Shown piece after piece: positions 21,309 to 57,263 of a stretch of DNA of 64,000 nt. Origin of the DNA: Chloroflexota bacterium (GTDB lineage Bacteria; Chloroflexota; UBA11872). The notes under the pieces are model-generated. The model did no database searches, had not been told where the DNA came from, and worked only from the letters and a program-made list of their open reading frames with translations. Position 1 is the first letter of the stretch. The number at the start of each line of letters is the position of its first letter. The stretch is from positions 3,807-67,806 of the forward strand of contig JAPOXD010000034.1 of NCBI GenBank assembly GCA_026707285.1. Reading direction: 5' to 3'. Both the position numbers and the translations under genes were made by a program.

Positions 21309-24002
21309 TCACGGGTTTCTTGGGCGTCGCCCTGGGAACCGCAGGGCGGAGCAGCAACGAGAGAAGTCAATACCGGTGACGATGAGGCTCGCCGCCACTC
21401 CTCCGGCGGTGACGGCGGCGATGGCGATGCCGAGGTCATACCAGCGCTGGGGGGCGTACTCGAACGTGATCGCGGAGTCTTCGGAAACCGGCAGGAAATA
21501 GCCGTTCCAGAGTCCGTCCGCGAGCAGCGGGGCGAATGCTTCGCCCTCCACCCAGGCCAGCCAGGCGGGGTCGTAGGCCCGGCGGAGGACGATGAAGGCC
21601 CAGCCGCCGGCGCCGCGCGCGGTGGCTTCGATGCGCGTGGGCTCACGCGTCGAGACTTTCAGGCGCGGCTGGGGCAGCGCGAACGAGGCCGGTGAGATCG
21701 CGGGACGCCAATCGGTGGGCGCGAGGGCCAGGGTGCTCACGGCTTCGAGCCCGGGACCGGCGGTCACGCCGATGTCGCCATCCGTCGCGGCCCCGACCCG
21801 CATCCACCGCCAGCCGGTGGTCGGCGACGTGGTGGCGAGCCGCGCGCTGGAGTTGGCGGTCGCAACGTCGATCCAGGTCGAGCGCGGGCTGGTGAAGACC
21901 CGCAGCCAGACGGCGCGGTCGCGATCGTCGGGAACGCGAATCCGCAGCGCCTCACGCTCGCCTTCGGGCGTGGCGAATGCCAGACCCAGGCCGTAGTCCG
22001 ACGCCCAGTCGTGGAGGTCCTCCCGCCCAAGCCGCTTGAGCCAGGACTGCCGCTCATCCGCGTATGCCCCGCCGCGGGTCCAGCCACCTCGCGAGCCGTG
22101 GTAGCCAAACCAGCCGGTGACGGGCATCAAATCGACGTTGTCGGCGACGGCGAAGACTGCGTCTGTGGTTGGCTGCGCCGGGGAGACCGCGTCGGGCAGC
22201 GACGGACGCACCCGGTGGTTGGCCAGGACGCGCGTGACGCCGGCCGGGGCGGCAACGTCGAGGGTGTCGCTCCAGACCGCGCCGGTGGCTTCGAGCAGCG
22301 GCGCGGCGGCGCCGAGATCAACCGCGAGTGCGTTTGGGCCGGACGCCAGGACGGCAGCGTCGGGCAGTGCGGCGAGGGCCGCGGCCAGCTCGTCACCGCT
22401 CGGCTGGTCGCGCATCACCACCGCGTGGCTGAAACCCGCGCGTTGGGCAGCGGCGAGCGCCTCGGCAGGCTCGACGCCGTAGATGTATTCGATCCATCGA
22501 CCGGGGACGGGCGACGGCGGCGCCGGCGAACGCGTGTCGCCGGTGAGGGATGGGTTTGCCAGGCTCGCCGCCTCCATCAGGCGCAAGGTGCGCGCCGGGT
22601 CCCAAGGCGCGGGCCGGTCGTCGGAGGACGCGACCAGGATTCGACCCTCGGGCCCCGCGGCCGCGTCCGCCGCCCGCAACACGTCGCGATAGTCCGCCGG
22701 CAGGGGACGCGGGACATATCCGGGTTGATCGGTGCTCCACAGGAGCGGCACGGCGGGGACCGCATGGACGCCCAGAGCAAGAACGACATAGCCCGCCAGC
22801 AGTGAAGGGCCGAGCGCGCTTCGCGTCCACCCGCCGGCCCCAATCCGGCTCAATAGATCGGCGACCACAAATCCGGCGCCGAAGGCCTGCGCCATGATCA
22901 GCAGGCCGACCACCCGGTCTGGTTCACGAAAGACCCACAGGCCGGGAACGGCATTCACGGCTGCCTGATAGGTATCCGCCGTGAGCGACCAGTTCGATGC
23001 GGCCGCGACCACGGCCGCCGCATACCCTCCGACGGCCAGAAAAAGCGCGGGCGGTCCCCAGCGGCGGAGGGCAACGGCCGCCAGCGGCATCACCGCCACC
23101 GCCCAGCCGGCGAACTCCCAGGGCAGCCGGCTGGCGGCCGGGGGAATCAAGAGTCCATGCCAGTTGGCATTCGCGGCTCCCTGGAGCGTGGTCGGAAGAT
23201 CCTGGTGATGCGCGAGCACCGTGCGGGTTTGGTCCATGAGGGTGTATGCCGGATCGGGACTGCCCCCGTAGAGCTTGACGGCGACATACGGCGCGATCTG
23301 GTAGGCCAACAGCGGGACGACCGCCGCCGACCACACGAGGCCGTCGGCCAGCGCCCGGCGGCGCTTGACGGGGCACTGCACCATGGTGCCGACGACCCAC
23401 GCGGCAATCATGAGCGTGGTGAAGACCAGGTAGTGGGGCTGCGCGGCGCCCAAGAGCGCGAAGACGAGGGCGGACGCAACCGTCCAGCGCCGCTGCGCGG
23501 TTCGCGTGCCCTCGAGATAGAGCGCCAGGACGAGCGGCGCCGCCGCCCATTGAGCCAGCAGCCAGCTGTGCTCCAGGCGCGCGATGGTCCAGGGATTGAC
23601 CACCAATGCCACCGCCGCGACCATGGCCCCCATGGCTGCGGCGGTGCGAGGAATCTCAGTGCGCCAGCGGGCGAACAGCGCGAAGGCCGCAAAGGCGCTG
23701 ACGTATCCAACGCCCGCGATCCACAGCACGATCAGGCGGGCATACGTCGCGCCGTCCAGGCCAAGCGCTTTGGCAACGCCCACGAGTGTGAGTGTGATCG
23801 GCAGGCGTCCGGTGCCCGCGATGCTCAGCGTGTCGCGCGGCGACCACAGGGGATAGACGCTGTGCTCGACGACGCGATCCAGGAAGAGCGAGGGATAGAG
23901 ATCACGCTGCTGCAAGTCGCCGGGGGTCGTGATGACGGCCCAGAACACGGCCACCACAATCAGCGCGCCGGTGCCGAAGGCCAGCGCCCAGGGGCTGGCC
24001 AT
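21309..24002 (-). CDS. large polytopic membrane protein, distant member of family A (putative GT-C-like glycosyltransferase)
   Basis: About 897 aa from MASPWALAFG; the ORF extends to 24065, but that would collide with the divergent gene. The N-terminal multi-TM region carries the NPW...PL and PHY motifs shared with family A. A large C-terminal extracytoplasmic domain follows. Confidence 0.55.
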   Translation of the reverse strand: MASPWALAFGTGALIVVAVFWAVITTPGDLQQRDLYPSLFLDRVVEHSVYPLWSPRDTLSIAGTGRLPITLTLVGVAKALGLDGATYARLIVLWIAGVGYVSAFAAFALFARWRTEIPRTAAAMGAMVAAVALVVNPWTIARLEHSWLLAQWAAAPLVLALYLEGTRTAQRRWTVASALVFALLGAAQPHYLVFTTLMIAAWVVGTMVQCPVKRRRALADGLVWSAAVVPLLAYQIAPYVAVKLYGGSPDPAYTLMDQTRTVLAHHQDLPTTLQGAANANWHGLLIPPAASRLPWEFAGWAVAVMPLAAVALRRWGPPALFLAVGGYAAAVVAAASNWSLTADTYQAAVNAVPGLWVFREPDRVVGLLIMAQAFGAGFVVADLLSRIGAGGWTRSALGPSLLAGYVVLALGVHAVPAVPLLWSTDQPGYVPRPLPADYRDVLRAADAAAGPEGRILVASSDDRPAPWDPARTLRLMEAASLANPSLTGDTRSPAPPSPVPGRWIEYIYGVEPAEALAAAQRAGFSHAVVMRDQPSGDELAAALAALPDAAVLASGPNALAVDLGAAAPLLEATGAVWSDTLDVAAPAGVTRVLANHRVRPSLPDAVSPAQPTTDAVFAVADNVDLMPVTGWFGYHGSRGGWTRGGAYADERQSWLKRLGREDLHDWASDYGLGLAFATPEGEREALRIRVPDDRDRAVWLRVFTSPRSTWIDVATANSSARLATTSPTTGWRWMRVGAATDGDIGVTAGPGLEAVSTLALAPTDWRPAISPASFALPQPRLKVSTREPTRIEATARGAGGWAFIVLRRAYDPAWLAWVEGEAFAPLLADGLWNGYFLPVSEDSAITFEYAPQRWYDLGIAIAAVTAGGVAASLIVTGIDFSRCCSALRFPGRRPRNP

Positions 24003-24070
24003 CCGCCCGCCAAGCCGCCAGAGGGCCGGCAGCGGCGATCGGCTGCGACCTGGGCGGCGAGTCACGGCCG

Positions 24071-24820
24071 ATGATGTTACGGCGATTTGGGGTGGCGCCG
24101 GGTGTGCTGGCGGCTTTGAGTGTAGTCGCGGCCGTGGCGGCGGCCCTGGCGCTGGGAGGCGCGGAACGCCAGTGGCCGGCGTTCCCGACCTACGCCTTCA
24201 ACCTGGAGTTTGGGCCCGCGTTTGCCGCCGGCAGCCTGGAACAGACATTCGCCGCTCCCGCCACGCCGCTGCGCCGCATCGAGCTGCGCGCGGTCAGCCC
24301 GTGGCCCGAGACCGTCACGGTTCGGGTGCGCGATGTCGGCGATCCGGCGGCCGAGGTGCTGGTCGAGGCCAGCGTTGGGATTGCCGCCGACGGCGCGATA
24401 CGACTTGATCTTCCGGGGACGGTGGATACGAGCGAACGGTTCCTACAGATTCAAGTCGTCAATCCGCCCGAGTCATCCACGCCCTTAGCGCTCCAGGCCA
24501 ATCACACCGACCCCTATGGCGGCGGACAAGCCGCCATCGGCAGCGACCCCGGCACGGGTTCGGTTGACCTGGTGCTACAGACCTGGCGGCGTGTCACGCC
24601 AACGGCGCTTGCGCTGGAGGTGCTGCGCGCAAACGCACTCGGCGCACTCTTCGCGCTGATGTCCCTAGTGGCAGTCGCCGGTCTGGCGCTGGCCTGGGGC
24701 TGGCGTCGGTTTAGCGACCGATCACGATCGGTGGCGGCTGCAGCTACGTTTCTGTGCATCGCGGTGGGACTTGGGCTGCTGCGCGTCGGCTTCGAAGTCC
24801 TCGCGCCCTGGGCGACCTGA
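24071..24820 (+). CDS. membrane-anchored hypothetical protein (companion-like: N-terminal TM, ~180-aa domain, C-terminal TM)
   Basis: 249 aa. AFNLEFGPAFAAGSLEQ after TM1 resembles the F.LGP..GS.TQ motif of the companion family. Divergent from the 21309 gene. Confidence 0.45.
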   Translation: MMLRRFGVAPGVLAALSVVAAVAAALALGGAERQWPAFPTYAFNLEFGPAFAAGSLEQTFAAPATPLRRIELRAVSPWPETVTVRVRDVGDPAAEVLVEASVGIAADGAIRLDLPGTVDTSERFLQIQVVNPPESSTPLALQANHTDPYGGGQAAIGSDPGTGSVDLVLQTWRRVTPTALALEVLRANALGALFALMSLVAVAGLALAWGWRRFSDRSRSVAAAATFLCIAVGLGLLRVGFEVLAPWAT

Positions 24821-24825
24821 CGGCG

Positions 24826-25845: not shown

Positions 25846-25923
25846 AGCAGTATGCCGAAGCTCCCCCTGAGCGAGTCGACTGGCTACCCGAACCACATCG
25901 CGGGACCCTGGGCGTGAGAACTC

Positions 25924-27159
25924 CTAGGCGTCGTTGCCGGACTTGCCGCCGTTGTCGGCGTCGAATCCATATTGCTGGACGATCACGTCCACGTTTCGCT
26001 CGGAGAACCGGCGCTCAGCCTCGGCGCGCGCTTGCTCGCGGAGCGCGGTCAGACCGGCGCCATCAGCCAGCATGTCCTGCAGTCCGGCCATGAACGCCTC
26101 GGCGCACGGCTCAACGAGCCGGCCGATCTCGGGAGTCACGGCTTCTCGCAGACCACCGAGGTTGCTCGCGACGATTGGCGTTCCAGCCGCGCTGCCCTCG
26201 AGCACTACGATCCCCGCCGCCTCTTCGTACTGCGACGGCACCAGCAGCAGGTCAGCCGCGGCATACATCGACGCGATGGTGTCGAGGCGTTCGGCTGGCG
26301 GGCCGGACGGATCCTGCATGAGCGTCAAGTTTGGCGACGCCGTTGAAGCCTCCGCGACCTCGGCTCCCATGTCACCTTCGGCGCCCAGCATCCGGAATTG
26401 CACGTTGGGCAGCCGCCGCGCGAGATCGAGAACGATGCCCACACCCTTCTTGCGCAGGAGTCGGCCAACAAAGAGACAGGTGGGCGCCGACTCCGGCCAC
26501 CCGAGCTTGGCACGAGCTTCGACTTGGCTGCGCGGCCGAAATACCTCGAGGTCGACCCAGTGCTGGTGGGCGGTGACGCGTGCCGGATCCAGCCCGATGG
26601 CGACAAGCTCCTGCCGGGACGCCTCGCTCACGGTCAGCACCCGATCGGCGCGCCCGAGCAGGGAACGCACGGCTTGCGCCAGCACCCGGCGCTGCCGCAG
26701 CTCGTAGATCGCGTGCATGCTGACGACGATCGGCTGTCGCGCGCCGGTCCAGCGCATGCCCAAGGCGGCCACGGCGGCGGCCAACCCGTGCGCGTGAATG
26801 ACGTCAAAGCTGTCGCTATGACGTATCCGGTGTCGAATGGCGCCCGCCAGCAGGCCGGGCACCAGGTAGGCGAACACCAGCGGCGCGTATGGTTCGATGC
26901 GCGGATGCCATCCGCGCCCAAACCATGGAATGCGGATGACTTCGCCGTTTGGGAGCGGCTCGCGCGATGGGGCCTTCACCGGAGCGACCAGCGGTTGGTG
27001 CGTGAGGAGCGTGACGCGGGTGTTTCGCCGCGCGAGCGCGGCGATGAGCGCGTCGATGTGCGTCTCGACCCCGCCACGATTGGGCGAGGCGAACGGTGAC
27101 AGCATGAGCACACGCCGACGGTCGCGGGGGTGGGCGTCGCGCGCAGCCGGCGTCATGTG
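25924..27159 (-). CDS. GT4-family glycosyltransferase
   Basis: Start at MTPAARD (27159). The GT-B C-terminal domain carries the E-x7-E region (EEAAGIVVLEGSAAGTPIV). Confidence 0.75.
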   Translation of the reverse strand, partial: HMTPAARDAHPRDRRRVLMLSPFASPNRGGVETHIDALIAALARRNTRVTLLTHQPLVAPVKAPSREPLPNGEVIRIPWFGRGWHPRIEPYAPLVFAYLVPGLLAGAIRHRIRHSDSFDVIHAHGLAAAVAALGMRWTGARQPIVVSMHAIYELRQRRVLAQAVRSLLGRADRVLTVSEASRQELVAIGLDPARVTAHQHWVDLEVFRPRSQVEARAKLGWPESAPTCLFVGRLLRKKGVGIVLDLARRLPNVQFRMLGAEGDMGAEVAEASTASPNLTLMQDPSGPPAERLDTIASMYAAADLLLVPSQYEEAAGIVVLEGSAAGTPIVASNLGGLREAVTPEIGRLVEPCAEAFMAGLQDMLADGAGLTALREQARAEAERRFSERNVDVIVQQYGFDADNGGKSGNDA

Positions 27160-27875
27160 ACTGCGGCCGGCCCGTGCATGAGGGCGATGACGAGAGCCGC
27201 GGTCACGCCGCCGCTCAGCGCCAGTGCCGCCGGCCGTCCGAACCGTCGCCGGTCGAGCGACGACCACGCAGCGCGCCCCACCACGGTTCCCACCAGCAGG
27301 GCGACGGCGAGGCCGACGCCGAGATAGAGCGGCGACTCGGTTGCCTGCACTCGAAGTCGTGTGAGCGCACCGGCGTGGCCGGAGGCCGAAAAGGCCAGAT
27401 CGACGTCAATCGGCGATCGGCCCAGCTGATCGACAAGCTGCCCAGCCGCATACGCATCGTTTCCCGTCGCTCCAACATAGAGTTCCGCCGGGGAGTCTTC
27501 GAGCGCGACGACCCGAATGGCCAGCGGTCCGGCCGGAAAGTCTACCGAGGCGATCGAGATTGAAACCTCCTGGAGCTCAGTGCTCGGCGGCGCCTCGATG
27601 CGAGCCGACCGGAGCGGTGGGCCATCCTGGGAACGCAGGAGGTGAATGTCCGCGTGCGCTGCGGCACCACCTTCACTCCGCGCCCAGATGGTCAAGGTGT
27701 CGATGGGGCCGCCAGCGAAGTCGACCGACTGCGTGATCGAGCCAACGAGCGGTCCGAGCCCAAAGCTCGGCGCCACCGGATTCTTAGCGGTGGTCAGCGG
27801 CTTCCATCCCAGGCCGACCGCGGCCCCGAGCATCAACACCAGCACCGTGGCGAGGAGCCAGACGGCGATCCTCAT
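27153..27875 (-). CDS. companion membrane-anchored protein of family-A gene (conserved family; N-terminal TM, extracytoplasmic domain, C-terminal TM)
   Basis: 240 aa from MRIAVWLL. Its ATG overlaps the upstream stop (ATGA at 27872-27875). Motif is PSFGLGPLVGSITQSVD. It is a paralog of 46533..47255. Confidence 0.55.
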   Translation of the reverse strand: MRIAVWLLATVLVLMLGAAVGLGWKPLTTAKNPVAPSFGLGPLVGSITQSVDFAGGPIDTLTIWARSEGGAAAHADIHLLRSQDGPPLRSARIEAPPSTELQEVSISIASVDFPAGPLAIRVVALEDSPAELYVGATGNDAYAAGQLVDQLGRSPIDVDLAFSASGHAGALTRLRVQATESPLYLGVGLAVALLVGTVVGRAAWSSLDRRRFGRPAALALSGGVTAALVIALMHGPAAVT

Positions 27876-29947
27876 GGACGCCAACCACCTGGCCGCGGCC
27901 GGCGCGGCCACAGTGTCCACGCGCCCCATGCGAAGAGACCCGCCCACGCTAGGGCGTGGCCCGCCAGAAACGCCTGGTGCAAGCGATATTCGAGGACCAG
28001 ACGGCCAAAGGCGCCGGCCTCCGTGCGGACGCGCAGCAGGTCACGCTCGGACGGTTCAACCATCGCGGCATGGCCCGGCACGTGAGCGGTCCAGAGTGGA
28101 TCCCAGTGTTCCTGGGTGACAATTTCGCGCGCATGCTCTCCGGCTGGCGGTAGGTCGATGACAAGGCGATGCGTGCCCTCGCGCCTCCACGGTAGCTCAA
28201 TCGGTCCACGGGGACTTGCCACGTAGACCCAGGGATACGCCGGCTCGACCGTGCGAAACAGCTCGTAGTAGTCCGCGGTCAGCTCAAGCGCGAGGCCTTC
28301 GGTCCGGCGCAGAGCTTGGGCAAGCTCCCGACCGCGGAGCGTGCCCGTTGGAACGAGCACCCGGGACACCCCATGGGCGCGAAGAGTGTCGGCGAGGGCG
28401 GGAGGGCCGGCTCCGACTAGCGACACGAGGCGGTCACCGACCAGCGAGTTTTCCGTCGCGTAGGGCGTGGTGACGGAAAGAATCTCGGCGGCGTGCAGGA
28501 CGCGGTGTTGCTCCGACCACTCGGGAAAGCGAAGTGGCCACGCCGCCAACAGCGTGCGCGATGCCTCGGCGGCGTTCTGTCGGTCAATCTCCGCCGGCAC
28601 TGTGCGAAACGACGCCGGGAACCGCTCCGGCACAAGGCTCAGCGACTGATCGTCCCAGAGCATGCGATGGATTCCGGGCGCCATGAAGGCCGCCAGCACG
28701 ATCCCAAGGACGGCAGTCTGAATCGTTGCCGCAACGGGCAGACGGCGCGGAGCGCATCGAACAAATGTCGCTGGAGCGAGGGCCAGTCCGGGTAGATAGG
28801 CCAGGGCCAGCGCGCCGGAGAGCTTGTCCGGCTCTCTGAGCGCCCATCCGAAGGGCGCATTTGCGGCGACGGCCAGGTAGCCGGGCCGCAGCGCCTCGTG
28901 CCAGCTGGCAATTTGAATGAAAACGGTGGCTCCGCCGACGATGGCGGCGTATCCCAGCACGCGGCGCTGACCGGGTTGTCGCCAAAACACCATCGCCAGC
29001 AAGGCAGCCGGAATGAAAGCTGCCATACGCCAGCCGGGTAAGGCCGTCGTCTCGGGCTTTAGGCCCGGACCGAAGAACGTGTGCCCGGTTAGGGTGAGGG
29101 TGTTGATGACGGTTTGGCCGCTCTCGAGCACCGGCTGGACATCGGTTCCTTCGGCGTACCTCGGTCCGGTGGGCGATCCGGCAACCGCCGTGACCAGGAG
29201 CGGTACGAGGATGAAGGCGGCGAAAATGGCAAAGCCGCCGAGGAACACCATGGCCGCGGCGACGATTGGGTGGCGGGGGTCGCGAGTGGTGAAGGCGGCG
29301 TAGGCCAACCACCCGAGGCCCACGAGCAGGCCAATTGCCATGTAGTGCGGCGAGGTGGAGACGGCAAAGGCCAGCACGGCGGCCGCCGCCAGCGCCCGGT
29401 GGACGCGGGAGCGAGCGGTGGGCGCGCGCGTCGCCACCACGACGAGACCGAGCACAAGCGGGAGGAGCACGGCGCTCACGTGCACCCCCAGCTGCTCCCA
29501 TCGCGCCAGAGCCCAGGGATTGAGTGCCCAAAACAGTCCGGCCAGCATCAGGCCGAGGCGTATCGCAACGGGATGCGTGACTCGGATTTCCGGCCCCGCC
29601 ATCAATCGTGCCCCCAGATATCCGGCGAGAAACCCGAGGAGGTGCCAGCTCAGCCAGTGGAACTTGCCCGCCGCCTCCGTGGTCAAATCAAACGCCTGAA
29701 TGAGCAAGCCCCAGGGAACGTAGGAGTAGGTGCGCATGACATTGACAAGCCCGGTGCCGTATGAGGTATCCCAGGCACTGGTGAACCGACGGGTCCAGAA
29801 CTCGTTGGCGAATGGATAGCCGAGATCGCCCTGAATGATTTCGCCCGGGGTCGCGACGACCCGCCAGCCCGCGACGAGGGTGAGTAGCAGACCGAGCACA
29901 ATCCAAGCCGAATCGCGGGCCAGCAGCCGGGCGATGTGGGTGGTCAT
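27872..29947 (-). CDS. family-A polytopic membrane protein A1 (putative GT-C-like glycosyltransferase)
   Basis: 691 aa with about 12-13 TM helices. Has an acidic first loop (GDLGYPFANEFW), the NPWALARWEQLGVHVSAVLLPL and SPHYMAIG motifs, a large C-terminal domain and a C-terminal hydrophobic anchor. Confidence 0.6.
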   Translation of the reverse strand: MTTHIARLLARDSAWIVLGLLLTLVAGWRVVATPGEIIQGDLGYPFANEFWTRRFTSAWDTSYGTGLVNVMRTYSYVPWGLLIQAFDLTTEAAGKFHWLSWHLLGFLAGYLGARLMAGPEIRVTHPVAIRLGLMLAGLFWALNPWALARWEQLGVHVSAVLLPLVLGLVVVATRAPTARSRVHRALAAAAVLAFAVSTSPHYMAIGLLVGLGWLAYAAFTTRDPRHPIVAAAMVFLGGFAIFAAFILVPLLVTAVAGSPTGPRYAEGTDVQPVLESGQTVINTLTLTGHTFFGPGLKPETTALPGWRMAAFIPAALLAMVFWRQPGQRRVLGYAAIVGGATVFIQIASWHEALRPGYLAVAANAPFGWALREPDKLSGALALAYLPGLALAPATFVRCAPRRLPVAATIQTAVLGIVLAAFMAPGIHRMLWDDQSLSLVPERFPASFRTVPAEIDRQNAAEASRTLLAAWPLRFPEWSEQHRVLHAAEILSVTTPYATENSLVGDRLVSLVGAGPPALADTLRAHGVSRVLVPTGTLRGRELAQALRRTEGLALELTADYYELFRTVEPAYPWVYVASPRGPIELPWRREGTHRLVIDLPPAGEHAREIVTQEHWDPLWTAHVPGHAAMVEPSERDLLRVRTEAGAFGRLVLEYRLHQAFLAGHALAWAGLFAWGAWTLWPRRPRPGGWRP

Positions 29948-32305: not shown

Positions 32306-32698
32306 GGTTCCGGGCCCTGCCTATCCGTCAAGCTCGTGAAGCTAGCAGAATGGCAGGGCGCGTCGCGGGCGCCGATCGGTGCGAATGCTGGTCCGCCAAC
32401 CGCTCGGCCTCGGTGCTAGACGGGCCAGCGTTGGTACGGCACGATGACGAAAGGACCACCGCCGGCCGCGATGGCATGACGTTCTCCGGCCATGGCCGCG
32501 TCTCTCCAGGCGATGTGCAATTCACCAAATCCCAGGCATCGAGCGCCGCCGCATGCTGCGGGCATGGCCGGCCCGTGGGCCCGGTCGGCGTTCGGACCGT
32601 AACGGTGAACGCACGCTGACGGCTCGCTTCGGCGCAGTGCCGCGACAGTCCAGGTCGCCGTCGCGATGCGCGATCGGCTCGAATCTGAAACACCGCCA

Positions 32699-47255: not shown

Positions 47256-47570
47256 GAGTAGGCCCGAGGGCGCCACGGCAACTTCGGCCACGCCGACCAA
47301 ACAGCCCACGCAAGCAGCCCGGCCCACGTAATCGCGTGCCCCACGATGAGGGCGCGCTGTAGGCCGGATTCAAGCACCAGGGGTCCGGAGGCGCCGGGGC
47401 CCAGCTGCACGCTCAGCAAACCCAACTCGGAACGCTCAACGGTAGCTTCATGGCCGGGCAGCTGGGCGGTCCACAGAGGGTCCCAATACTCCTGGGTGAC
47501 GATTTCACGCGGCTCATCCGCACCTGGCGGCACGTCGATCACGAGGCGGTGCATGCCCTCGCGCCGCCAC
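47160..47570. repeat. near-identical duplicated block, copy 1 (3' end of A2 plus 5' end of its companion)
   Basis: About 400 bp that is near-identical to 49780-50190. The overlapping antisense ORF translations are identical except for 2 residues. Confidence 0.7.
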
Positions 47571-49626: not shown

Positions 49627-49878
49627 CTAGGAAAGCTGTGAAGAAGGCAGGGCTGAGGCGCCTGGGCGGACGCACGGCACGGTCTTGGGGCTGGGGAGGC
49701 CCGGTCGGACGGTCGGGGCCGCCGATCCAGGCCCCTGGGACCGCTGGCGGCCCCGCGCCGGGTGCAATGCGCCCACGTCAGGCGGGCTCGGACCTGCGAC
49801 GGGCACGCGCTCCTGTGCCACCACAGCCGCCAAGGCCAGCGCCAACGCCGTCACAACCAGCCACGCGGCAACTCTCAC
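49627..49878 (-). pseudogene. truncated remnant of companion gene downstream of A3
   Basis: The first ~30 codons (VRVAAWLVVTALALALAAVVAQERVPVAGPS) are identical to the A2 companion. It then diverges into non-homologous sequence and stops after 84 aa. Confidence 0.45.
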
Positions 49879-50190
49879 GAGTAGGCCCGAGGGCGCCACG
49901 GCAACTTCGGCCACGCCGACCAAACAGCCCACGCAAGCAGCCCGGCCCACGTAATCGCGTGCCCCACGATGAGGGCGCGCTGTAGGCCGGATTCAAGCAC
50001 CAGGGGTCCGGAGGCGCCGGGGCCCAGCTGCACGCTCAGCAAACCCAACTCGGAACGCTCAACGGTAGCTTCATGGCCGGGCAGCTGGGCGGTCCACAGA
50101 GGGTCCCAATACTCCTGGGTGACGATTTCACGCGGCTCATCCGCACCTGGCGGCACGTCGATCACGAGGCGGTGCATGCCCTCGCGCCGC
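49780..50190. repeat. near-identical duplicated block, copy 2 (3' end of A3 plus companion remnant)
   Basis: Near-identical to 47160-47570. Confidence 0.7.
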
Positions 50191-52034
50191 CACGGGAGTC
50201 CCGTCGGACCCGCCGGTCGACCCTCGTAGACCCACGGATAGGGGGGGTCCAGGGTCCGAAAAACCTCGTGATAGTCCTCGGCAAATTCGAGCTCCAAGCC
50301 ATCGGTCGTCCGCAGACGCTGCGCGGATTCTTGTCCGCGGGTCGTGTCCGTGGCCACCAGCACCCGCTCCACGCCATGGGCGCGCAAGACATCGCTTACG
50401 TTGGGTGCGCCACCTTCCAAGAGCGCCACAAGGCGGTTGCCAACCGGCAGATTGCTCACCGCATACGGCGTGATCACGGAGACGCGCTCGATCAAGGGCA
50501 GGACACGACCCTGCGACGACCATTCGGGAAGGCGCTGATCCCAGATCGCCAGGAGGGTGCGCGACGCCCAGTCGGCGTTGCGCCGGTCAATCTCCGCCGG
50601 CACGGTGTGAAATGAGGCTGGGAAGCGCTCGGGCACATGCTGCGCCCTCTCGTCGAGAAGCCCCCACTGGACCGCCGGCAGCATATAGATCGCCAGCGCG
50701 AGCCCCACGGCAGCCGTCTGGATCGCGCCCACAGCCGGCACGGTGCGGGGCGCGTGCCGGGTGAACATCACCGGTGCCAGGGCAATGCCTGGGAGATAGG
50801 CGAGCGCCAACACGCCGGTGAGCCTATCTGGACTCCTGAGCGCCCATCCGAACGGCGCATTGACCACAAAATCCAAGTACGCCGGGCGCGTTGCTTCAGC
50901 AAATGTGGCGATCTGAAACAGTGCCGTAAGGCCGCAGAGAATCGCGGAATACCCAAGCAGCAGTCGGTGGCTCGGCAGACGCAAGAGCGCAAGCGCCAGC
51001 AGCGCCACGGGCACAAAGGAGGCTATGCGCCATCCCGCGAGCGCGCTTGGCGTGGAAGGTCTGAAAAGCGAATCCCAGCCTTCGTGTCCGGTCAGCGCGA
51101 GGGTGTTGCTGAATGACAAGAACGGGTGTACTGCGGAGAGGTTTTCAATTCCAGATAAGTAGGTGGGACTTGTCGCCGATCCGCCGATGGTTGCGACGAC
51201 ATAAGGCACCAGGAAGAACGCGGCAAGGACGGCGTAACCGCCAATGAACACGGCGGCGGTAATCATGAGCGGGCGACGGCGACCGCGGGCCATCACGGTG
51301 GCATAGACAAACCAGCCGATGCCCGAGAGCACTCCAATTGCCATGTAATGCGGCGATGTCGAGACGACGAACGCGAGCGCGGCCGCTGCCGCCAACGCGT
51401 GTCGCACGCGGCCGCGCCGACTGTTTGAGCGTGCCGCGGATACTGCCAAGCCCACGACGAGCGGAAGCGCCATTGCACTCACGTGAACGTACAACTGGCC
51501 CCAGCGCCCAAGGCTCCAGGGGTTGATGGCCCAGAAGAGGCCCGCCAGCACAAGGCCAGCGCGGACGGCGACCGGGTGCGCAGCGCGCATCTCTGGTCCA
51601 ACCATCAACCGGGCGCCCACGTACCCGGCCAGGAAACCCAGGAGGTGCCAGCTCAGCCAGTGGAGTTTGCCCGCGGATTCCGACGAGAGACCAAGCACCT
51701 GGACTACAAAGCCCCAGGGAGCATCCACGTAGGTACGCACGATCGTGACGAGCGTGCTCCCAGACGAGGTGTCCCAGGCACTGATGAACCAACGAGTCCA
51801 GAACTCGTCAGCGAACGGATATCCGGCGTCCCACCGAGCAAGCTCGCCCGGCGTCGCCACGACGCGCCAGGCCACCGCGACAGCGATCAGCAGCCCTAGC
51901 GCGATCCAGGCCACATCGTGGGCCAAGACGCGCCGCGCAAGTTCGGCAAAGGACGCCGAATCCGGCGCCCAGTAACGCATCCGGAGGAATACTCTTGTGA
52001 AGCGCCCTCTCGCTTCAGGCGAGGTGACGCTCAT
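49875..52034 (-). CDS. family-A polytopic membrane protein A3 (putative GT-C-like glycosyltransferase)
   Basis: 719 aa. ATG at 52032-52034 (MSVTSPEARGRF). Motifs are NPWSLGRWGQLYVHVSAMALPL and SPHYMAIG. Confidence 0.65.
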   Translation of the reverse strand: MSVTSPEARGRFTRVFLRMRYWAPDSASFAELARRVLAHDVAWIALGLLIAVAVAWRVVATPGELARWDAGYPFADEFWTRWFISAWDTSSGSTLVTIVRTYVDAPWGFVVQVLGLSSESAGKLHWLSWHLLGFLAGYVGARLMVGPEMRAAHPVAVRAGLVLAGLFWAINPWSLGRWGQLYVHVSAMALPLVVGLAVSAARSNSRRGRVRHALAAAAALAFVVSTSPHYMAIGVLSGIGWFVYATVMARGRRRPLMITAAVFIGGYAVLAAFFLVPYVVATIGGSATSPTYLSGIENLSAVHPFLSFSNTLALTGHEGWDSLFRPSTPSALAGWRIASFVPVALLALALLRLPSHRLLLGYSAILCGLTALFQIATFAEATRPAYLDFVVNAPFGWALRSPDRLTGVLALAYLPGIALAPVMFTRHAPRTVPAVGAIQTAAVGLALAIYMLPAVQWGLLDERAQHVPERFPASFHTVPAEIDRRNADWASRTLLAIWDQRLPEWSSQGRVLPLIERVSVITPYAVSNLPVGNRLVALLEGGAPNVSDVLRAHGVERVLVATDTTRGQESAQRLRTTDGLELEFAEDYHEVFRTLDPPYPWVYEGRPAGPTGLPWRREGMHRLVIDVPPGADEPREIVTQEYWDPLWTAQLPGHEATVERSELGLLSVQLGPGASGPLVLESGLQRALIVGHAITWAGLLAWAVWSAWPKLPWRPRAYS

Positions 52035-52091: not shown

Positions 52092-53816
52092 CTAGCCGGC
52101 GCCAACAGCCGGCACCGCCTCGGGTGCGGCGGGTTCCAGCAAGCTGGCGTCGATCGGCGCGGTTGACCCGCCGGCGGTGAAGAGCCTGGCGGGAAGTTCG
52201 GCGACACCCGTGTCGACCGGTGCGGCGCCGGCGTCACCGCCCTCCAGCTGCCCCTTCCGAAAGTCGAGCATGTGGCCGACGATGTAGCGCGACCCGCGCA
52301 CCACATAGTAGCGGAAGTGGTCGCGGCTCTTGCCCGCATGCAGCAGCTTGCGGGTCACATAGCGCGGCGTGAGAAAGCTGGTGTAGAGCGACTGCACCAG
52401 CCCCATGATCTCCGGCGTGGGGATTGGCGACCGCAGCACGGGCTCTCGCATGTCGTAGCGTTCCCAGTGCTCCGGGCCGTCGAACCGGAGCCAGTCGTGC
52501 TCGCGCGCCTGGGCGTAGAGCTGAGTGCCCGGGTAGGGAATGACGATGGTGCCCTGAAGGGTATTGATCCAGCCGCGGTCGAAGGTCTCGCGCGTGAAGT
52601 CGATGGTCCGCTTGGCCTCCTCGAACGTCTCCCACGGGTAGCCGACCATGCACGTCACGTGGGGTTCCAGCCCGGCCTCGCTGGCCCACTTCACCGATTC
52701 CCACTGCTGGCGCACGGTCGTGCCCTTGTTGAGCAGATCGAGGGTGCGCTGATTGGCCGACTCGATGCCGTAGAGAATGAAGCGGAAGTTGCTGTCCCCC
52801 AGCATTTCGTATTCGGCCTGGGACAGGGCATCGGCGCGCATGTTGCAGCCCATCATCAGGACCTTGTGCAGACCGCGCTCGCGGAACCCGGTGCAAAAGT
52901 CGGTGAGCCAGCGCCCCGCGGGGAACGTGCCCGTGTCGTCGAACACTTCCTCGACGCCGAGATCGACGAGCTGCTCCAATTCGTCCAGATAGTCGTCAAC
53001 GGGCCTGACGGACCACGTAGGCAGCATGCTGGTCCAGGAGCAGAAGGTGCACCCGCCGCCGCCGCGCCGCGGCCCCCCGGGCACCCGCCGCCGCCACCAG
53101 CAGTCGGCGCTGGTTGAGCCGGTAGCCCAGCCGTAGGTGCCCTTCTTCAGGAAGTTGCCGTTGCGATAGGCGTAGAGCTCCCACTTGGCGAGCTGACGGT
53201 CGATATGCGGACGAACGGCTTCCCGGACCGGCGGATCGGGCTCTTCGCCGGAATTGACGATCTCGGTCTCGTCATGACGCCAAAACACGCCGCCTCCAAG
53301 GTCGTCGCGACCCTCCAGGAAGTCGGCGAGATTCAAGATGGCAAAGTCGAACTGGCCGCCCCGGATCACATAGTCGACGGGACAAAAGAGAAACGGCTCT
53401 TCGGGAAACGCGGTGACGTGGTCGCCCACCAGCGCGATGGTCATCTCGGGAAACCGCGCCTTGAGGTCGGCGATCGCGTGGTAGAGGGGCGGCGCGCTCG
53501 GCGTCTTGGTTTCGATCATCATCAGGTCGGGACACGCCAGTTCGACCTCGCGGCAGTAGGATTCCCAGTCCCACCCTTCGGCGATCCCATCCAGCCAGAC
53601 GGCCTCGTGGCCATGCCGTTGCAGGAGGGTGGCCGCCAGCGCGGGCAACACGGGAAAAATGACGGTGGCGTTGTCGCCGACGAAGCGGTTCAGCGCACCC
53701 ACGAGCCCATGGCCCTCGCTGCGGCCCGTCGAAAAGACCTGGTATTGCCGATTCTGACTGAGGAGCGGGATGCCCTTGGCGCTCTCGAACGGCGGAAAGC
53801 TGATGGCAACTCTCAC
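52092..53816 (-). CDS. B12-binding domain radical SAM protein (class B rSAM-like)
   Basis: 574 aa. N-terminal B12-binding-like domain (LVGDHVTAFPEE) followed by a radical SAM core. The Cys motif is atypical: C-x17-C-x2-C (ADCWWRRRVPGGPRRGGGGCTFC). Confidence 0.7.
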   Translation of the reverse strand: MRVAISFPPFESAKGIPLLSQNRQYQVFSTGRSEGHGLVGALNRFVGDNATVIFPVLPALAATLLQRHGHEAVWLDGIAEGWDWESYCREVELACPDLMMIETKTPSAPPLYHAIADLKARFPEMTIALVGDHVTAFPEEPFLFCPVDYVIRGGQFDFAILNLADFLEGRDDLGGGVFWRHDETEIVNSGEEPDPPVREAVRPHIDRQLAKWELYAYRNGNFLKKGTYGWATGSTSADCWWRRRVPGGPRRGGGGCTFCSWTSMLPTWSVRPVDDYLDELEQLVDLGVEEVFDDTGTFPAGRWLTDFCTGFRERGLHKVLMMGCNMRADALSQAEYEMLGDSNFRFILYGIESANQRTLDLLNKGTTVRQQWESVKWASEAGLEPHVTCMVGYPWETFEEAKRTIDFTRETFDRGWINTLQGTIVIPYPGTQLYAQAREHDWLRFDGPEHWERYDMREPVLRSPIPTPEIMGLVQSLYTSFLTPRYVTRKLLHAGKSRDHFRYYVVRGSRYIVGHMLDFRKGQLEGGDAGAAPVDTGVAELPARLFTAGGSTAPIDASLLEPAAPEAVPAVGAG

Positions 53817-53917
53817 GCGGGTTTATCGTTCCAAGGGTGGTGAAGCAGCAGCATCAATGGACTGGCGTCAGGCTAGTTCCGCCGCGCGACACGTCGGCTC
53901 TATGATTCTAGAACACT

Positions 53918-54952: not shown

Positions 54953-54998
54953 AGCAGTTGCCGGCCGGCGGCGGCAGGGTCGGACACTCCGAGGCTGC

Positions 54999-56450
54999 CT
55001 AGCTTGTCAGGGGATCGCCTCGCTCATGTTGACAATGCCAGCACTGCTCAAGGCCACCCGTTCCTTCGCGGAGTCTCTCCGGTTGCGGGCGAACGACCCG
55101 CTGCAAGTACGGGCAGTCATGATGGGTGTGATGCTTGTAACTCGGCAGTGCGGGGCCGCCATCGGGCGCGGCAGCATGCCAAGCATGGGCCGCACTGGCC
55201 CGAGTTTCGGTGAGCACCAGATCGACCACGCGGCGCAGGGCCTCTTCGCGCGCGTCTCCTTCCAGCCGCCGGAGGCGATAGAGATCGAGCTGCCGGTCGG
55301 CCCCTGATCCCTCGCGGATGATGGTGCGCGCGTGGCGCAGCTCCGGCTCGCAGCCAAGCGCGCGGGCGTCGTCGGCGAGGTCCTCCACGAGCTCGTCGGT
55401 CAAGTCGCTGATGTCCTTCCGGCCGCCGCCGCGCTCGTCCCCAAAGAAGGCGAGGACGCCGTAGCGCTGGGCCAGCCAGCGGTTCTCGGCAATGATCTCG
55501 GTCGGCGGCTCCGGCGGCAGGGCTCCGTCCCGGTGCCGGCGGAGCAATCGCCGGACCAGCGATGCGTAGATGGCCACGATGCACATTGCGTCGTCGATAC
55601 GCGTGCAGACATCGCAGATGCGCATCTCGATGGTCGGATGGGCATGGGAGGGGCGAATGTCCCACCACAGCTCGCTGCCGTCGGTGATGAAGTCCATGCG
55701 CCGATAGTCGGCCACCAGCCGGTCGTATTCGGCGCGCGACCACAGGGGGCCGGGCAGGCTGGTCCGCGGCAAGTTGCCCACCAGGTTCAGGCGGTAGGAC
55801 TTGAAGCCGGTGTCGTGGCCTCCGTTGAACGGCGAGTTGGTGGAAAGCGCGTGGATCAGCGGCAGGTAGCGCCGCATGGCGGTCATCACGCGAACCCGCT
55901 CATCCGGGTCGCCAAATCCCGCGTGGACGTGCATGCCGCCGATCAGGAACCGCCGCACGCTCTCCTGATACGTCGTGGTGAATCGCTCGTAGCGCTCGCG
56001 CGGGGTGGTGGCCTGCGCCCTCCAAGCCGCAAACGGATGGGTCGAGGCGGCCATCACCGCCGCCCCATAGGTTTCGGCCGCCTGGGTCACGACCCGTCGC
56101 GTCTCCAGCAGGGCGGCGCGAACCTCGGCCACCGTTGCGCACACCCGGGAGATTGCCTCGACCTGCGTGCGCAGCAGCTCCCGCGAAATCTCGTGCGGCC
56201 CGCTGTGCGCCGCTGCGGTTTCGAAAATGCGAATGTCAGGGTCGGCGAGAAGGTCGCGCGACGCGGGGTCGACGAGAAAAAACTCCTCCTCGACCCCGAG
56301 CGTGATCGCCAGGTCGTCCTGAGAGTCGCTGGGCGTACCGCCCTGCACCGCTAGCCCGATCCTTTCATGGCCGTTACGAACGACAGCGTTGCCAAAGCCC
56401 TCAAAACATACCCTGCGTCCGCGCATGACCAAAACCGCACACGACGGCAC
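54999..56450 (-). CDS. carboxylate-amine ligase, YbdK/GCS2 family
   Basis: LGVEEEFFLVD...NSPF...HVH are GCS2 hallmarks. The start is uncertain; 56426 is a possible alternative. Confidence 0.65.
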   Translation of the reverse strand: MPSCAVLVMRGRRVCFEGFGNAVVRNGHERIGLAVQGGTPSDSQDDLAITLGVEEEFFLVDPASRDLLADPDIRIFETAAAHSGPHEISRELLRTQVEAISRVCATVAEVRAALLETRRVVTQAAETYGAAVMAASTHPFAAWRAQATTPRERYERFTTTYQESVRRFLIGGMHVHAGFGDPDERVRVMTAMRRYLPLIHALSTNSPFNGGHDTGFKSYRLNLVGNLPRTSLPGPLWSRAEYDRLVADYRRMDFITDGSELWWDIRPSHAHPTIEMRICDVCTRIDDAMCIVAIYASLVRRLLRRHRDGALPPEPPTEIIAENRWLAQRYGVLAFFGDERGGGRKDISDLTDELVEDLADDARALGCEPELRHARTIIREGSGADRQLDLYRLRRLEGDAREEALRRVVDLVLTETRASAAHAWHAAAPDGGPALPSYKHHTHHDCPYLQRVVRPQPERLREGTGGLEQCWHCQHERGDPLTS

Positions 56451-56486
56451 AGGTGAGAGCCTCGCGACACGGGATCGGTCGCGGCC

Positions 56487-57263
56487 TTACTCCGGATTGA
56501 ACCGACGCAGGCGGCCCGCCACCATCAGCGTCTCGACGAACATCGTGGCGGCGGTGGTCGGTCGGATTGTGCTCGGATATCGATCACGGACGATCACGGG
56601 CGCCTCCACGATGGTCCGGAACCCGAGTCGAATCGCCAGCGCCAGAGCCTCGATATCGAAGGCGAAGCCCGACGTGCGCACGTGCGGAAACACCTGCTCG
56701 ACGACCGGCGCGGCATAGATTTTCAGCCCAACCTGCGTGTCGCGCACGGCGAGACCGAAGAGCAAGCGCGTGAGCTGCCGGTAGCCCCAGCTATAGACGC
56801 GGCGCGCCAGCGGATATTCGACCACGGACTGGGCGTGCAGCTTTGATCCGACCACGATGTCCGCCCCCGTCTCGACGTGGAGCCGATAGGCCTCCACGAG
56901 GCACTGCGGGGGAATGTCGCCGCCGCCGTCGAGAAACGCCCGCGAGCGCCCGGCAACCGCCAGCAGCCCGCGGCGCACGGCCTCACCCTTGCCCGCGTTC
57001 CGCTCATGCACGGCGACGCGCAGCCGTTCGTGCTCGATTCTTGCGAGCGCTTCCGATGTGCCGTCCTCATCGCCGTCCACGACTACCAGCAACTCATAGC
57101 CGCAGCCAAGGCCGTCCAACGCCCGCAGAACCTCGCCGACCTGATGGCCGATGACGTCGGACTGCCGATAGGTCGGTATGACGACCGAGAGGTCGGGGAG
57201 CTTCTCGGTTGACGTGTCAACTTGCTCGGACGGATCGAGGGACGCGTCGGCCGTCATCACCAC
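56487..57263 (-). CDS. GT2 polyprenyl-phosphate glycosyltransferase (DPM1/GtrB/CsbB-like)
   Basis: 258 aa and soluble-sized. Has LSVVIPTYRQ...ELLVVVDGDEDGTSE, and DxD follows. Confidence 0.75.
   Translation of the reverse strand: MVMTADASLDPSEQVDTSTEKLPDLSVVIPTYRQSDVIGHQVGEVLRALDGLGCGYELLVVVDGDEDGTSEALARIEHERLRVAVHERNAGKGEAVRRGLLAVAGRSRAFLDGGGDIPPQCLVEAYRLHVETGADIVVGSKLHAQSVVEYPLARRVYSWGYRQLTRLLFGLAVRDTQVGLKIYAAPVVEQVFPHVRTSGFAFDIEALALAIRLGFRTIVEAPVIVRDRYPSTIRPTTAATMFVETLMVAGRLRRFNPE

Follow-up and report, generated by a model that had tools for sequence, protein, structure and literature searches.

The window (the 64,000-nucleotide stretch of DNA analysed here, which belongs to an uncultured member of the Chloroflexota) encodes six very large polytopic membrane proteins between 21.3 and 57.3 kb, which raises the question of what these proteins are and what they would build. 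The first-pass annotation had likened them to GT-C glycosyltransferases devoid of a recognisable named family signature; this absence is real, since searches of all six against Pfam and NCBIfam returned zero matches, and the PDB sequence search gave no direct match for any of them. The six open reading frames are present as described then (Table 1), and all show a coding-type GC3 (0.74–0.84). Sequence comparison further indicates that they are paralogues of one another: identity is 58–69% among the B, E and F types and 74% between C and D, A aligns with B/E/F over ~550 aa (26% identity, E 1e-19), the C-terminus of A resembles that of C/D (E 3e-4), and hhalign joins the B-family and C/D-family profiles over 403 columns (probability 84%, E 8e-6).

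Table 1. Features of the locus, in window positions; functional names are predictions from sequence matches and models (TM, transmembrane; E, E-value).
Feature	Coordinates	Strand	Length	Basis or description
A-type AftD-like GT-C	21309..24065	-	918 aa	TM domain, soluble domain, one CBM-like/beta-sandwich region, C-terminal TM helix
s249	24071..24820	+		N-terminal TM helix, ~150-aa outside domain, C-terminal TM helices; divergent from A-type gene
GT2 with C-terminal TM helices	24826..25896	-	356 aa	Pfam Glycos_transf_2, E 2.7e-20; best PDB match membrane GT2 6yv7
GT4	25924..27267	-	447 aa (longest ORF)	Pfam Glycos_transf_1 and Glyco_transf_4
s264a	27153..27875	-	240 aa from coupled start	ATGA start/stop overlap with B691; ENA gene call agrees
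B-type AftD-like GT-C (B691)	27872..29947	-	691 aa	11 TM, outside alpha/beta and beta-sandwich domain (432-655), C-terminal TM (656-679)
SAM-dependent methyltransferase	30140..31033	+		Pfam Methyltransf_11, E 8e-22
GT4	31139..32305	-		Pfam Glyco_trans_1_4, E 1.6e-23
Carbamoyltransferase (NodU/CmcH type)	32666..34498	+		Pfam Carbam_trans_C, E 6.9e-58; Carbam_trans_N, E 4e-20
s400	34454..35572	-	372 aa from coupled start	Longer C-terminal TM bundle; ATGA overlap with C1175 stop
C-type AftD-like GT-C (C1175)	35569..39096	-	1175 aa	CBM35/6-like beta-sandwich modules, C-terminal TM helix
FkbM-family methyltransferase	39219..39956	-		Pfam Methyltransf_21, E 8e-18
D-type, C paralogue	40169..43696	-	1175 aa
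Divergent Wzx/MOP-type oligosaccharide flippase	43788..45131	-	447 aa	~13 hydrophobic segments
GT4	45192..46460	-		Pfam Glycos_transf_1, E 1e-29
s264b	46533..47255	-	240 aa from coupled start	GTGA overlap with E714 stop
Exact repeat, copy 1	47179..47571		393 nt	3' end of E gene and first codons of s264b
E-type AftD-like GT-C (E714)	47252..49396	-	714 aa	59% identity to B, 69% to F
Exact repeat, copy 2	49802..50194		393 nt	3' end of F gene
F-type AftD-like GT-C	49875..52034	-	719 aa	Extra E/F copy, absent from closest related genome
Radical-SAM enzyme	52092..53816	-	574 aa	Pfam Radical_SAM
GT2 with C-terminal TM helices	53918..54952	+		Pfam Glyco_tranf_2_3; TM prediction
YbdK/GCS2 carboxylate-amine ligase	54999..56450	-		Pfam GCS2, E 1.8e-51; NCBIfam PRK13515, 398 bits (cut-off 371)
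Small GT2, candidate polyprenyl-phosphate sugar synthase	56487..57263	-	258 aa

The described protein to which the six lead is AftD, the mycobacterial alpha-(1->3)-arabinofuranosyltransferase (Pfam PF11847, GT-C_AftD, formerly DUF3367; PDB 6w98, 6wbx, 6wby). Foldseek matched the predicted structure of B691 (pLDDT 87.3, pTM 0.89) to AftD with an E-value of 7.9e-10 and a TM-score of 0.54; for C1175, the TM domain was modelled poorly (pLDDT 58.5). A search with the B/A-family profile collected 802 cluster representatives, and the profile built from B691 and 40 of these matched the AftD sequence (E 1e-18) across the GT-C domain, the C-terminal DPxW...NG[FW] module and the TM helix. AftD was also matched, at E 5.4e-15, by a C/D profile that took in the closest relatives. 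PF11847 itself was reached, marginally, by some distant relatives. Thus, both structure and profile searches, named in the first-pass annotation as able to overturn its GT-C reading, favour it, and sequence and model together show the six to be distant relatives of AftD with a predicted GT-C fold, a link that is transitive or structural because none of them has a direct match. The suggestion of an undescribed GT-C clade holds insofar as no family model recognises these proteins, but they are remote kin of a described enzyme, reached via intermediate profiles only; they are a real, unannotated, AftD-like GT-C subfamily.

The likeness to AftD includes 11 TM helices, a soluble GT-C domain, beta-sandwich/CBM modules, the return to the membrane by a TM helix after the DPxW...NG[FW] module, and conservation of the Asp just after TM1 and of the Lys in the R-x-x-x-K loop. 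The differences are nevertheless considerable: identity is ~17%, none of the six proteins matches PF11847, all are far shorter (691–1175 aa vs. ~1400 aa), B/E/F are devoid of CBMs, and a single C-terminal TM helix stands where AftD has TM12 and a TM13-16 bundle binding acyl carrier protein. Moreover, six paralogues share one locus, the host belongs to the Chloroflexota, and the locus is devoid of the decaprenyl-phospho-arabinose pathway, its donor candidate being a Dpm1/GtrB-like GT2.

The acceptor had been left open between S-layer, glycoprotein and polymer. The 1175-aa pair C/D carries CBM35/6-like modules, which point to a glycan acceptor, and some distant relatives carry CBM_35, CBM_11, CBM_4_9 or CBM_6 domains; together with the specific link to AftD, such modules favour a polysaccharide. 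A comparable arrangement exists in the arabinan/mannan machinery of mycobacteria and corynebacteria (EmbA/B/C, AftA-D, MptA/B), where GT-C paralogues share the extension and branching of one outside polysaccharide and, according to the literature, bear C-terminal carbohydrate-binding modules, even though phylum and sequence family differ and our locus clusters all its paralogues with tailoring enzymes. It is unlikely that the six are instead oligosaccharyltransferase- or PMT-like enzymes glycosylating a protein (e.g., of the S-layer): none has a WWD or WWDxG motif or matches the Pfam STT3, PMT or PMT_2 models, the only PDB sequence that the profiles reach is AftD (neither STT3 nor PglB nor PMT is matched), the soluble domain and C-terminal module align with their AftD counterparts, and the CBM-like modules of C/D and many relatives are typical of glycan-binding enzymes.

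Regarding topology, the ~13 N-terminal TM helices first proposed have to be corrected, as the B691 model features 11, plus one C-terminal helix. Arg/Lys-rich loops alternate with loops bearing the conserved motifs, and the side opposite the Arg-rich loops is that of both the large domain and the acidic loop; this charge distribution shows the first-loop Asp and the soluble domain to be outside the cell, as predicted earlier, and speaks against a cytoplasmic placement. The two acidic motifs reported earlier were both recovered, GDLGYPF at residues 40-46 of B691 and LRDDW at residues 64-68 of C/D. In all 45 family members examined, D41, N143, W145, R149 and W477 are invariant, D41 being so in 41 superfamily sequences as well, and no A/B/E/F-type member departs from the Asp of the first outside loop. 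The C/D residue that aligns with it, Asp67, never varies within that family, and its conservation is still at least 90% once distant relatives are included. The A type displays the motifs PGDLQQRDLYP, NPW, REPDR and DPAW. D41 and K361 are essential in AftD (10.1101/2019.12.22.885152), and K375 in the REPDK motif of B691 aligns with the latter. The E type keeps the D, NPW and DPLW motifs, but an Arg that is conserved elsewhere is Ile in it and missing from its subfamily, so that activity may be changed or absent in some of the paralogues. That some or all paralogues have a GT-C fold but are non-catalytic (scaffold, glycan-binding or export proteins), or are polymerase/ligase-like and use diphosphate-linked donors, seems quite improbable, given that the first-loop Asp, NPW, R149 and W477 are invariant in A/B/E/F-type members (E and F included), that equivalent positions are retained in C/D (R65 and D67 without exception, D66 with a conservation of at least 90%) and that the locus holds a donor-synthase candidate. 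As for transporters, peptidases or another non-glycosyltransferase class, an assignment hardly credible, its sole support is the absence of family matches and it is contradicted by the Foldseek and profile matches to AftD.

Beside these AftD-like enzymes, the locus encodes four small membrane proteins, s249, s264a, s264b and s400, which are paralogues of one another and which the first-pass annotation had missed. They form one family according to sequence comparison: s264a and s264b are 49% identical, and in hhalign s249 aligns with the s264 family at a probability of 91% (E 1e-6) and with s400 at one of 73% (E 3e-5). s249 has no match in Pfam, NCBIfam or PDB. In three of the four (s264a, s264b and s400), the start codon overlaps the GT-C stop codon (ATGA/GTGA), so that they would be translationally coupled to the upstream GT-C gene; the D-type gene has no partner of its own. 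s249 is kept beside the A-type gene in 10 loci, s400 is invariably found after the C type in related loci, the same pairing with a 4-nt overlap recurs in locus L018 (29% identity, 58% GC), and the GT-C and partner parts are fused in P0096 (27% identity). Hence, the four most likely associate with the GT-C enzymes as stoichiometric subunits, with acceptor handling or lipid-donor delivery as possible roles. AftD, too, is reported to act together with a second membrane protein, TmaT, in a 1:1 complex (bioRxiv preprint 10.64898/2026.07.31.741936), but the partners in our locus are small, belong to an unrelated family that has no annotation and are not acyltransferases.

For the donor, the DPM1/GtrB-like nature ascribed to the 258-aa GT2 is borne out by its top PDB sequence matches, all polyprenyl-phosphate glycosyltransferases (PfDPMS 5mlz, E 1.5e-9; ArnC; GtrB), and NCBIfam models for dolichyl-P hexose transferase, PpgS and ArnC match under cut-off. 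The Wzx-like flippase is upheld through distant homologues (25–35% identity, E 1e-21 to 1e-6) annotated with PF01943/PF13440 or under the name “oligosaccharide flippase”, though the protein itself has no direct Pfam match. In three-component Gtr/Dpm1-type systems, a GT2 that synthesises polyprenyl-phosphate sugar is combined with a flippase and a GT-C transferase (e.g., GtrB/GtrA/GtrC, ArnC/ArnEF/ArnT, Ppm1 with PimE/Mpt). Our locus likewise associates a small PfDPMS/ArnC/GtrB-like GT2 with GT-C-fold enzymes predicted to act outside, but these are AftD-like rather than GtrC/ArnT/PMT_2-like, six genes face one obvious donor synthase, a small GtrA/ArnE-type flippase was not found, and GT4 and GT2 enzymes form an additional branch that depends on Wzx. 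Neither an initiating phosphoglycosyltransferase nor sugar-nucleotide synthesis genes were found in the locus.

The remaining enzymes largely agree with their first assignments: Pfam, NCBIfam and PDB matches identify three GT4 and three GT2 enzymes, and Pfam/NCBIfam matches the carbamoyltransferase, the SAM and FkbM methyltransferases and the YbdK ligase. In the 356-aa GT2, hydropathy predicts one TM helix (292-310), a second (~325-345) being read from the sequence only. The GT4 adjoining s264a likely starts at 27156, with a 4-nt overlap with the s264a stop, the ENA gene call giving 410 aa and the same overlap. Of the supposed B12-radical SAM enzyme, the radical-SAM part is supported by Pfam; the B12-binding type is suggested by weak family similarity, i.e., HpnJ, BchE and B12-rSAM matches in NCBIfam, all under cut-off, and a weak B12-binding match in an orthologue. 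This enzyme is the most conserved of the locus (87–98% identity in relatives).

Gene neighbourhood comparison shows the locus to be kept in ~12 Chloroflexota MAGs, with A-type orthologues syntenic in ~10. On a soil contig, two tandem family members adjoin a Wzx homologue, a GT2 and a GT4, and in locus L015 the E/F type is represented by one gene only. The 393-nt repeat common to the E and F genes had gone unmentioned before; all that is left of the partner gene downstream of F is a remnant of 31 codons.

Altogether, the locus probably represents an assembly pathway for a complex, modified cell-surface polysaccharide that includes six AftD-related GT-C proteins. Cytoplasmic GT4 and GT2 enzymes would build a polyprenyl-linked oligosaccharide, which the Wzx-like protein would move to the external face of the membrane, while the 258-aa GT2 would supply donors by loading single sugars onto polyprenyl phosphate. 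Once flipped, these lipid-linked sugars would serve the six GT-C enzymes as donors for lengthening and branching the glycan outside the cell, perhaps with a distinct linkage for each paralogue type and with the growing chain held by the CBM-like modules. The sugars of the chain may be decorated by the methyltransferases, the carbamoyltransferase, the radical-SAM enzyme and the carboxylate-amine ligase.

The six large membrane proteins encoded between 21309 and 57263 (A918, B691, C1175, D1175, E714 and F719, with lengths in amino acids in their names) are remote relatives of the mycobacterial arabinofuranosyltransferase AftD, a GT-C enzyme, as seen through intermediate profiles and structure. 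Direct searches leave them without a family: at E <= 1, Pfam returned nothing for five of the six and a spurious PRA1 match for the sixth, with no match to YfhO, PMT/PMT_2/ArnT or the DUF-type GT-C families, while NCBIfam scans of all six gave zero matches. The WWD motif of oligosaccharyltransferases (WWDxG) is likewise absent from all six, with no Pfam STT3 match either. Single-sequence searches against the PDB gave zero matches and the two direct family profiles (A1 and A2) did not match AftD there, AftD being reached only by profiles widened with distant representatives. The profile combining B691 with 40 relatives (A3) matches AftD (6w98/6wbx) at E 1e-18, positions 45-547 of the profile corresponding to AftD 46-543, and the match also spans the C-terminal module ahead of the last transmembrane (TM) helix; the profile of C1175, D1175 and their nearest relatives (A7) matches the same two regions at E 5.4e-15. 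The Pfam model PF11847 (GT-C_AftD) is reached by three distant superfamily representatives (best match about 26 bits, E ~2e-6), and none of the six proteins attains its gathering score. Thus, the first-pass annotation was right to see no named family signature in these proteins, but its suggestion of an undescribed GT-C clade has to be qualified by their remote kinship with AftD.

Structure prediction points the same way. The AlphaFold2 model of B691, computed from the alignment of B and A types (pLDDT 87.3, pTM 0.89), has a polytopic N-terminal domain with the helix arrangement of GT-C enzymes, packed on an outside soluble domain. Its best structural match is AftD of M. abscessus (score 21.5; 553 residues aligned, 17% identity), followed by Pmt4 (19.4), STT3B (19.1), Pmt2 and PglB (both 17.7), AftA and ALG12 (both 17.1), AglB (16.9), ArnT and AftB (both 13.4). 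Foldseek also ranks AftD first (E 7.9e-10, TM-score 0.54), then oligosaccharyltransferase subunits, AglB, AftA, PglB and DPY19, whereas transporters appear with a probability of only ~0.1. The C1175 model is poor (pLDDT 58.5), so that structure matches of its TM domain are no more than supportive. Altogether, the six proteins are predicted to have the GT-C fold, as had been proposed from the sequence. They share with AftD the order of elements up to TM12, including the intervening outside domain, but AftD goes on to a C-terminal bundle (TM13-16) to which acyl carrier protein binds, whereas the six end at a single TM helix and a short Arg-rich tail. Because the PF11847 test failed and this bundle is missing, they constitute an unannotated sister subfamily among AftD-like GT-C enzymes rather than AftD itself; they probably work like AftD.

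The candidate active site is strongly conserved. In B691 numbering, G35, D41, N143, W145, R149 and W477 are invariant in 45 of 45 family sequences, and D41 is also invariant in a superfamily alignment of 41 sequences. In the segment L64-R65-D66-D67-W68 of the C and D types, R65 and D67 are invariant and D66 is at least 90% conserved; hhalign places D41 of B691 opposite D66 of C1175, one residue ahead of D67. The acidic motif reported earlier in the first extracytoplasmic loop is therefore a conserved feature, carried by D41 in the A, B, E and F types and by D67 in the C and D types. In AftD, K39, D41, E251, K361 and D474 are essential (10.1101/2019.12.22.885152). The R65-D66-D67 triplet of C/D occupies the place of AftD K39-x-D41, and the C/D motif FRN(I/V)RY stands where AftD has LRNVHK. 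AftD K361 aligns with K375 of the B691 REPDK motif (present in 41 of 45 family sequences), allowing for a three-residue offset of the 6w98 chain that was verified by the positions of E251 and D474/E475. Clearly conserved equivalents of the other essential residues are lacking: none exists for AftD D474/E475, and close to the E251 position D269 occurs in no more than a majority of the sequences. As for the arginine of the REPDK loop (R371 in B691), it is invariant in the two broad superfamily alignments (A3 and A5) and replaced by Ile, Thr or Lys in E714 and its orthologues, which may reflect an altered specificity or a reduced activity of the E type.

Topology was assessed computationally, by applying the positive-inside rule to the modelled helices. 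In the B691 model, 11 TM helices precede an outside domain (432-655), after which the chain crosses the membrane in a twelfth helix (656-679). The segments rich in Arg/Lys (N-terminus, 172-184, 221-225, 323-329, 397-402 and C-terminal tail) alternate with the loops bearing D41, NPW, SPHY, the long flexible loop 257-299 and REPDK, so that an extracytoplasmic position is predicted for both the soluble domain and the conserved motifs, in agreement with the orientation first assigned to the acidic loop and the large domain.

According to BLASTP, the B, E and F proteins are mutually 58-69% identical and C and D 74% identical, while A918 bridges both groups, with 26% identity to B/E/F over ~550 residues (E 1e-19) and a C-terminal region resembling that of C/D (E 3e-4). 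Moreover, the B/A and C/D family profiles align over 403 membrane-domain columns (hhalign probability 84%, E 8e-6), and the distant proteins found by the former are also matched by the latter. Close homologues are few: a word-indexed search yielded about 40 per type, all at least 55% identical except three of A type, and those with a named source all come from Chloroflexi/Chloroflexota MAGs; in a scan of one genome per species, the B type was found in only 12 Chloroflexota MAGs. When 1.84 billion representatives were searched exhaustively with a profile, 802 relatives were recovered (299 at E <= 1e-10), most of them 1000-1600 aa long and matched over the membrane domain. These ~800 clusters at 50% identity represent a wider AftD-like superfamily that is largely unannotated, most of the members looked up being unnamed or “hypothetical”; several carry carbohydrate-binding modules (CBM_35, CBM_11, CBM_4_9 or CBM_6), and one distant representative weakly matches DUF6541. 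Since one relative (P0107, 1369 aa, annotated only as “carbohydrate binding domain-containing protein”) belongs to a Candidatus Heimdallarchaeota MAG, this unannotated branch extends to Asgard archaea. In a farmland soil metagenome contig (GC 55%), the stretch 9495-18477, directly behind the genes of a cytochrome oxidase operon, encodes two tandem GT-C members (947 and 548 aa, genes overlapping by 4 nt) along with a Wzx homologue, a GT2, a GT4 and a pyruvyl transferase; no partner resembling the small proteins described below was recognised there.

Four small membrane proteins (s249, s264a, s264b and s400) adjoin GT-C genes. All follow a common plan: one TM helix at the N-terminus, then an outside domain (~150 residues) opening with the motif F-x-(L/I)-G-P...G-S-x-x-Q, and finally two to five TM helices at the C-terminus. 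They have no relatives in Pfam, NCBIfam or the PDB (a filamin match at E 0.53 is not significant). Profiles of their orthologues match each other (s249 and s264: probability 91%, E 1e-6; s249 and s400: 73%, E 3e-5), which shows that the four belong to a single family. The stop of the GT-C gene overlaps the start of its partner as ATGA for B691/s264a and C1175/s400 and as GTGA for E714/s264b, in agreement with public gene calls. D1175 and F719 are without a partner of their own, no more than a 31-codon remnant being left after F719. The association is kept in the corresponding loci of all related MAGs and has so far been met in only two distant relatives. The first, the single locus returned by a metagenome scan with a narrower alignment, lies on a contig of 58% GC (L018), where a GT-C gene whose product is 29% identical to B691 overlaps by 4 nt with the gene behind it, which encodes an s264-like protein of 244 aa (HMM E 1e-18); GT4, GT2 and methyltransferase genes come next, in the same order as here. 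The second is a 965-aa protein (P0096), 27% identical to B/E/F, with an s264-like module fused at its C-terminus (HMM E 6e-20), a single sequence that may be a frameshift artefact. The possibility that the partners are counterparts of the AftD TM13-16 bundle was discarded, because the corresponding part of AftD lacks an outside domain of ~150 aa. AftD has been described in a 1:1 complex with the membrane protein TmaT (bioRxiv preprint 10.64898/2026.07.31.741936); this complex is a precedent for a partner subunit, not an indication of homology.

In the window (~67% GC), GC content by codon position picks out a single clear gene set, with 23 genes in the island, nearly all on the minus strand (see table). 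Housekeeping genes flank it on both sides: a SulP transporter and a carbonic anhydrase on one, a LarA-like enzyme, an M3 peptidase and a prolyl-tRNA synthetase on the other. Neither tRNA genes nor Rfam matches were found in the window, which therefore shows no sign of a mobile-element boundary for the island. GC3 is 0.74-0.86 in island genes vs. 0.85-0.94 in most flanking genes, a gap that could stem from different codon-usage constraints or from a different history of the locus. The LarA-like protein, a nickel-pincer enzyme, has “putative hexonate epimerase” as best NCBIfam match, below cut-off. The longest-ORF starts of A918 and s249 are divergent and only 5 nt apart, so that the promoters, or the true start of one gene or both, must fall within the adjacent coding sequence; codon 22 of A918 is an internal Met. 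Finally, a 393-nt exact direct repeat takes in the last ~107 codons of both E714 and F719 as well as the beginning of the s264b coding sequence. Outside of it the E and F genes are only ~60-80% identical in DNA; it could result from recent gene conversion, recent duplication or an assembly artefact, and L015, the closest related genome, carries a single gene of the E/F type.

Coordinates of the features in and around the island
Feature	Coordinates	Strand	Remark
DUF3500 protein and two PhyH-type dioxygenases	14313-17917		upstream of island; apparently unrelated to glycan locus
A918	21309-24065	-	GT-C-like
s249	24071-24820	+	partner; divergent from A918
GT2	24826-25896		Pfam
GT4	25924-27267		Pfam
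s264a	27153-27875		partner; start overlaps B691 stop
B691	27872-29947		GT-C-like
GT4	31139-32305		Pfam
s400	34454-35572		partner; start overlaps C1175 stop
C1175	35569-39096		GT-C-like
D1175	40169-43696		GT-C-like
447-aa Wzx-like protein	43788-45131		probable flippase
GT4	45192-46460		Pfam
s264b	46533-47255		partner; start overlaps E714 stop
393-nt repeat, first copy	47179-47571
E714	47252-49396		GT-C-like
393-nt repeat, second copy	49802-50194
F719	49875-52034		GT-C-like
Radical-SAM enzyme	52092-53816		Pfam
GT2	53918-54952		Pfam
GT2	56487-57263		Pfam
LarA-like enzyme	57423-58760		directly adjoins island; syntenic in L015
Methyltransferases			one Methyltransf_11, one FkbM; Pfam
Carbamoyltransferase			one; Pfam
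GCS2/YbdK ligase			Pfam; NCBIfam cut-off also passed

The accessory genes turned out as initially read, Pfam identifying the GT4 and GT2 enzymes, the methyltransferases, the carbamoyltransferase, the radical-SAM enzyme and the GCS2/YbdK ligase. For the small 258-aa GT2, the seven best PDB sequences are all polyprenyl-phosphate glycosyltransferases, with PfDPMS (Pyrococcus, E 1.5e-9) first, then ArnC and GtrB (to E 2e-6), and its NCBIfam scores for DPhHxTase, PpgS and ArnC are far below the curated cut-offs. C-terminal TM helices had raised the idea that the two other GT2 (GT2a and GT2b) were additional polyprenyl-phosphate sugar synthases, which is not supported because their PDB matches are generic GT2 enzymes (PcManGT, chondroitin synthase, PglI). 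The 447-aa protein, with ~13 hydrophobic segments, has no direct Pfam match even at E <= 10; it is probably a divergent Wzx/MOP flippase, since its homologues (25-35% identity, E 1e-21 to 1e-6) either contain PF01943/PF13440 or have been named “oligosaccharide flippase”. The neighbourhood of one distant homologue (P0279) was uninformative. The radical-SAM gene exceeds all others of the locus in conservation by a wide margin, being 98% identical in L015 and 87% in a distant locus (L001: contig OY282448 of a 3.0 Mb Chloroflexota MAG, 1-5365), vs. 56-63% for the GT-C genes of the latter; every NCBIfam match of the radical-SAM enzyme is far below cut-off. Next to the L001 locus lies a gene for a bona fide PMT/PMT_2 GT-C enzyme, and in the locus an asparagine-synthase-like amidotransferase takes the place of the YbdK ligase, suggesting that the pathway has kept a step of amide formation.

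From these genes, the most likely pathway is one in which cytoplasmic GT4 and GT2 enzymes would assemble a lipid-linked oligosaccharide to be flipped by the Wzx-like protein, while the 258-aa GT2 would make polyprenyl-phosphate monosaccharide donors. On the outer face, the six GT-C paralogues would add and branch sugars, with the CBM-like modules that are present in the C/D enzymes holding the polymer and the small partner proteins acting as stoichiometric subunits; the methyl-, carbamoyl-, radical-SAM- and amide-forming enzymes would decorate the sugars. The indication that the putative GT-C donor is a sugar linked to polyprenyl phosphate or diphosphate is circumstantial, namely the Dpm1/ArnC/GtrB-like GT2 of the locus; no UbiA-type or DprE-type gene was found among the locus genes scanned with Pfam. 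The combination of a polyprenyl-phosphate sugar synthase, several GT-C paralogues and CBMs follows the known logic of mycobacterial arabinan and mannan synthesis. We regard as possible, if rather unlikely, that an AftD-like catalytic subunit and an obligate co-translated small subunit define an unrecognised two-subunit class of GT-C enzymes, six of which assemble, wholly on the outer side of the membrane, an arabinogalactan-like wall polysaccharide that is heavily branched and decorated.

Key envelope polymers made by GT-C enzymes include mycobacterial arabinan, O-mannans, N-glycans and lipid A modifications; some of these enzymes are targeted by drugs. What is new here is a family without a Pfam or NCBIfam model, which has grown to six copies within a single Chloroflexota locus, a conserved and translationally coupled partner family, and how large and broad the unannotated superfamily around the six proteins is. 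A large AftD-related branch of the GT-C superfamily is thus invisible to Pfam and NCBIfam and can expand to six paralogues per locus, most of them with a conserved small partner. The sequences of this locus could seed family models to annotate “hypothetical” membrane proteins in metagenomes. Were the two-subunit class with its arabinogalactan-like polymer true, the polymer would be an envelope component new for the phylum Chloroflexota, and the locus offers a concrete and testable entry into the almost unknown envelope glycobiology of its uncultured members.
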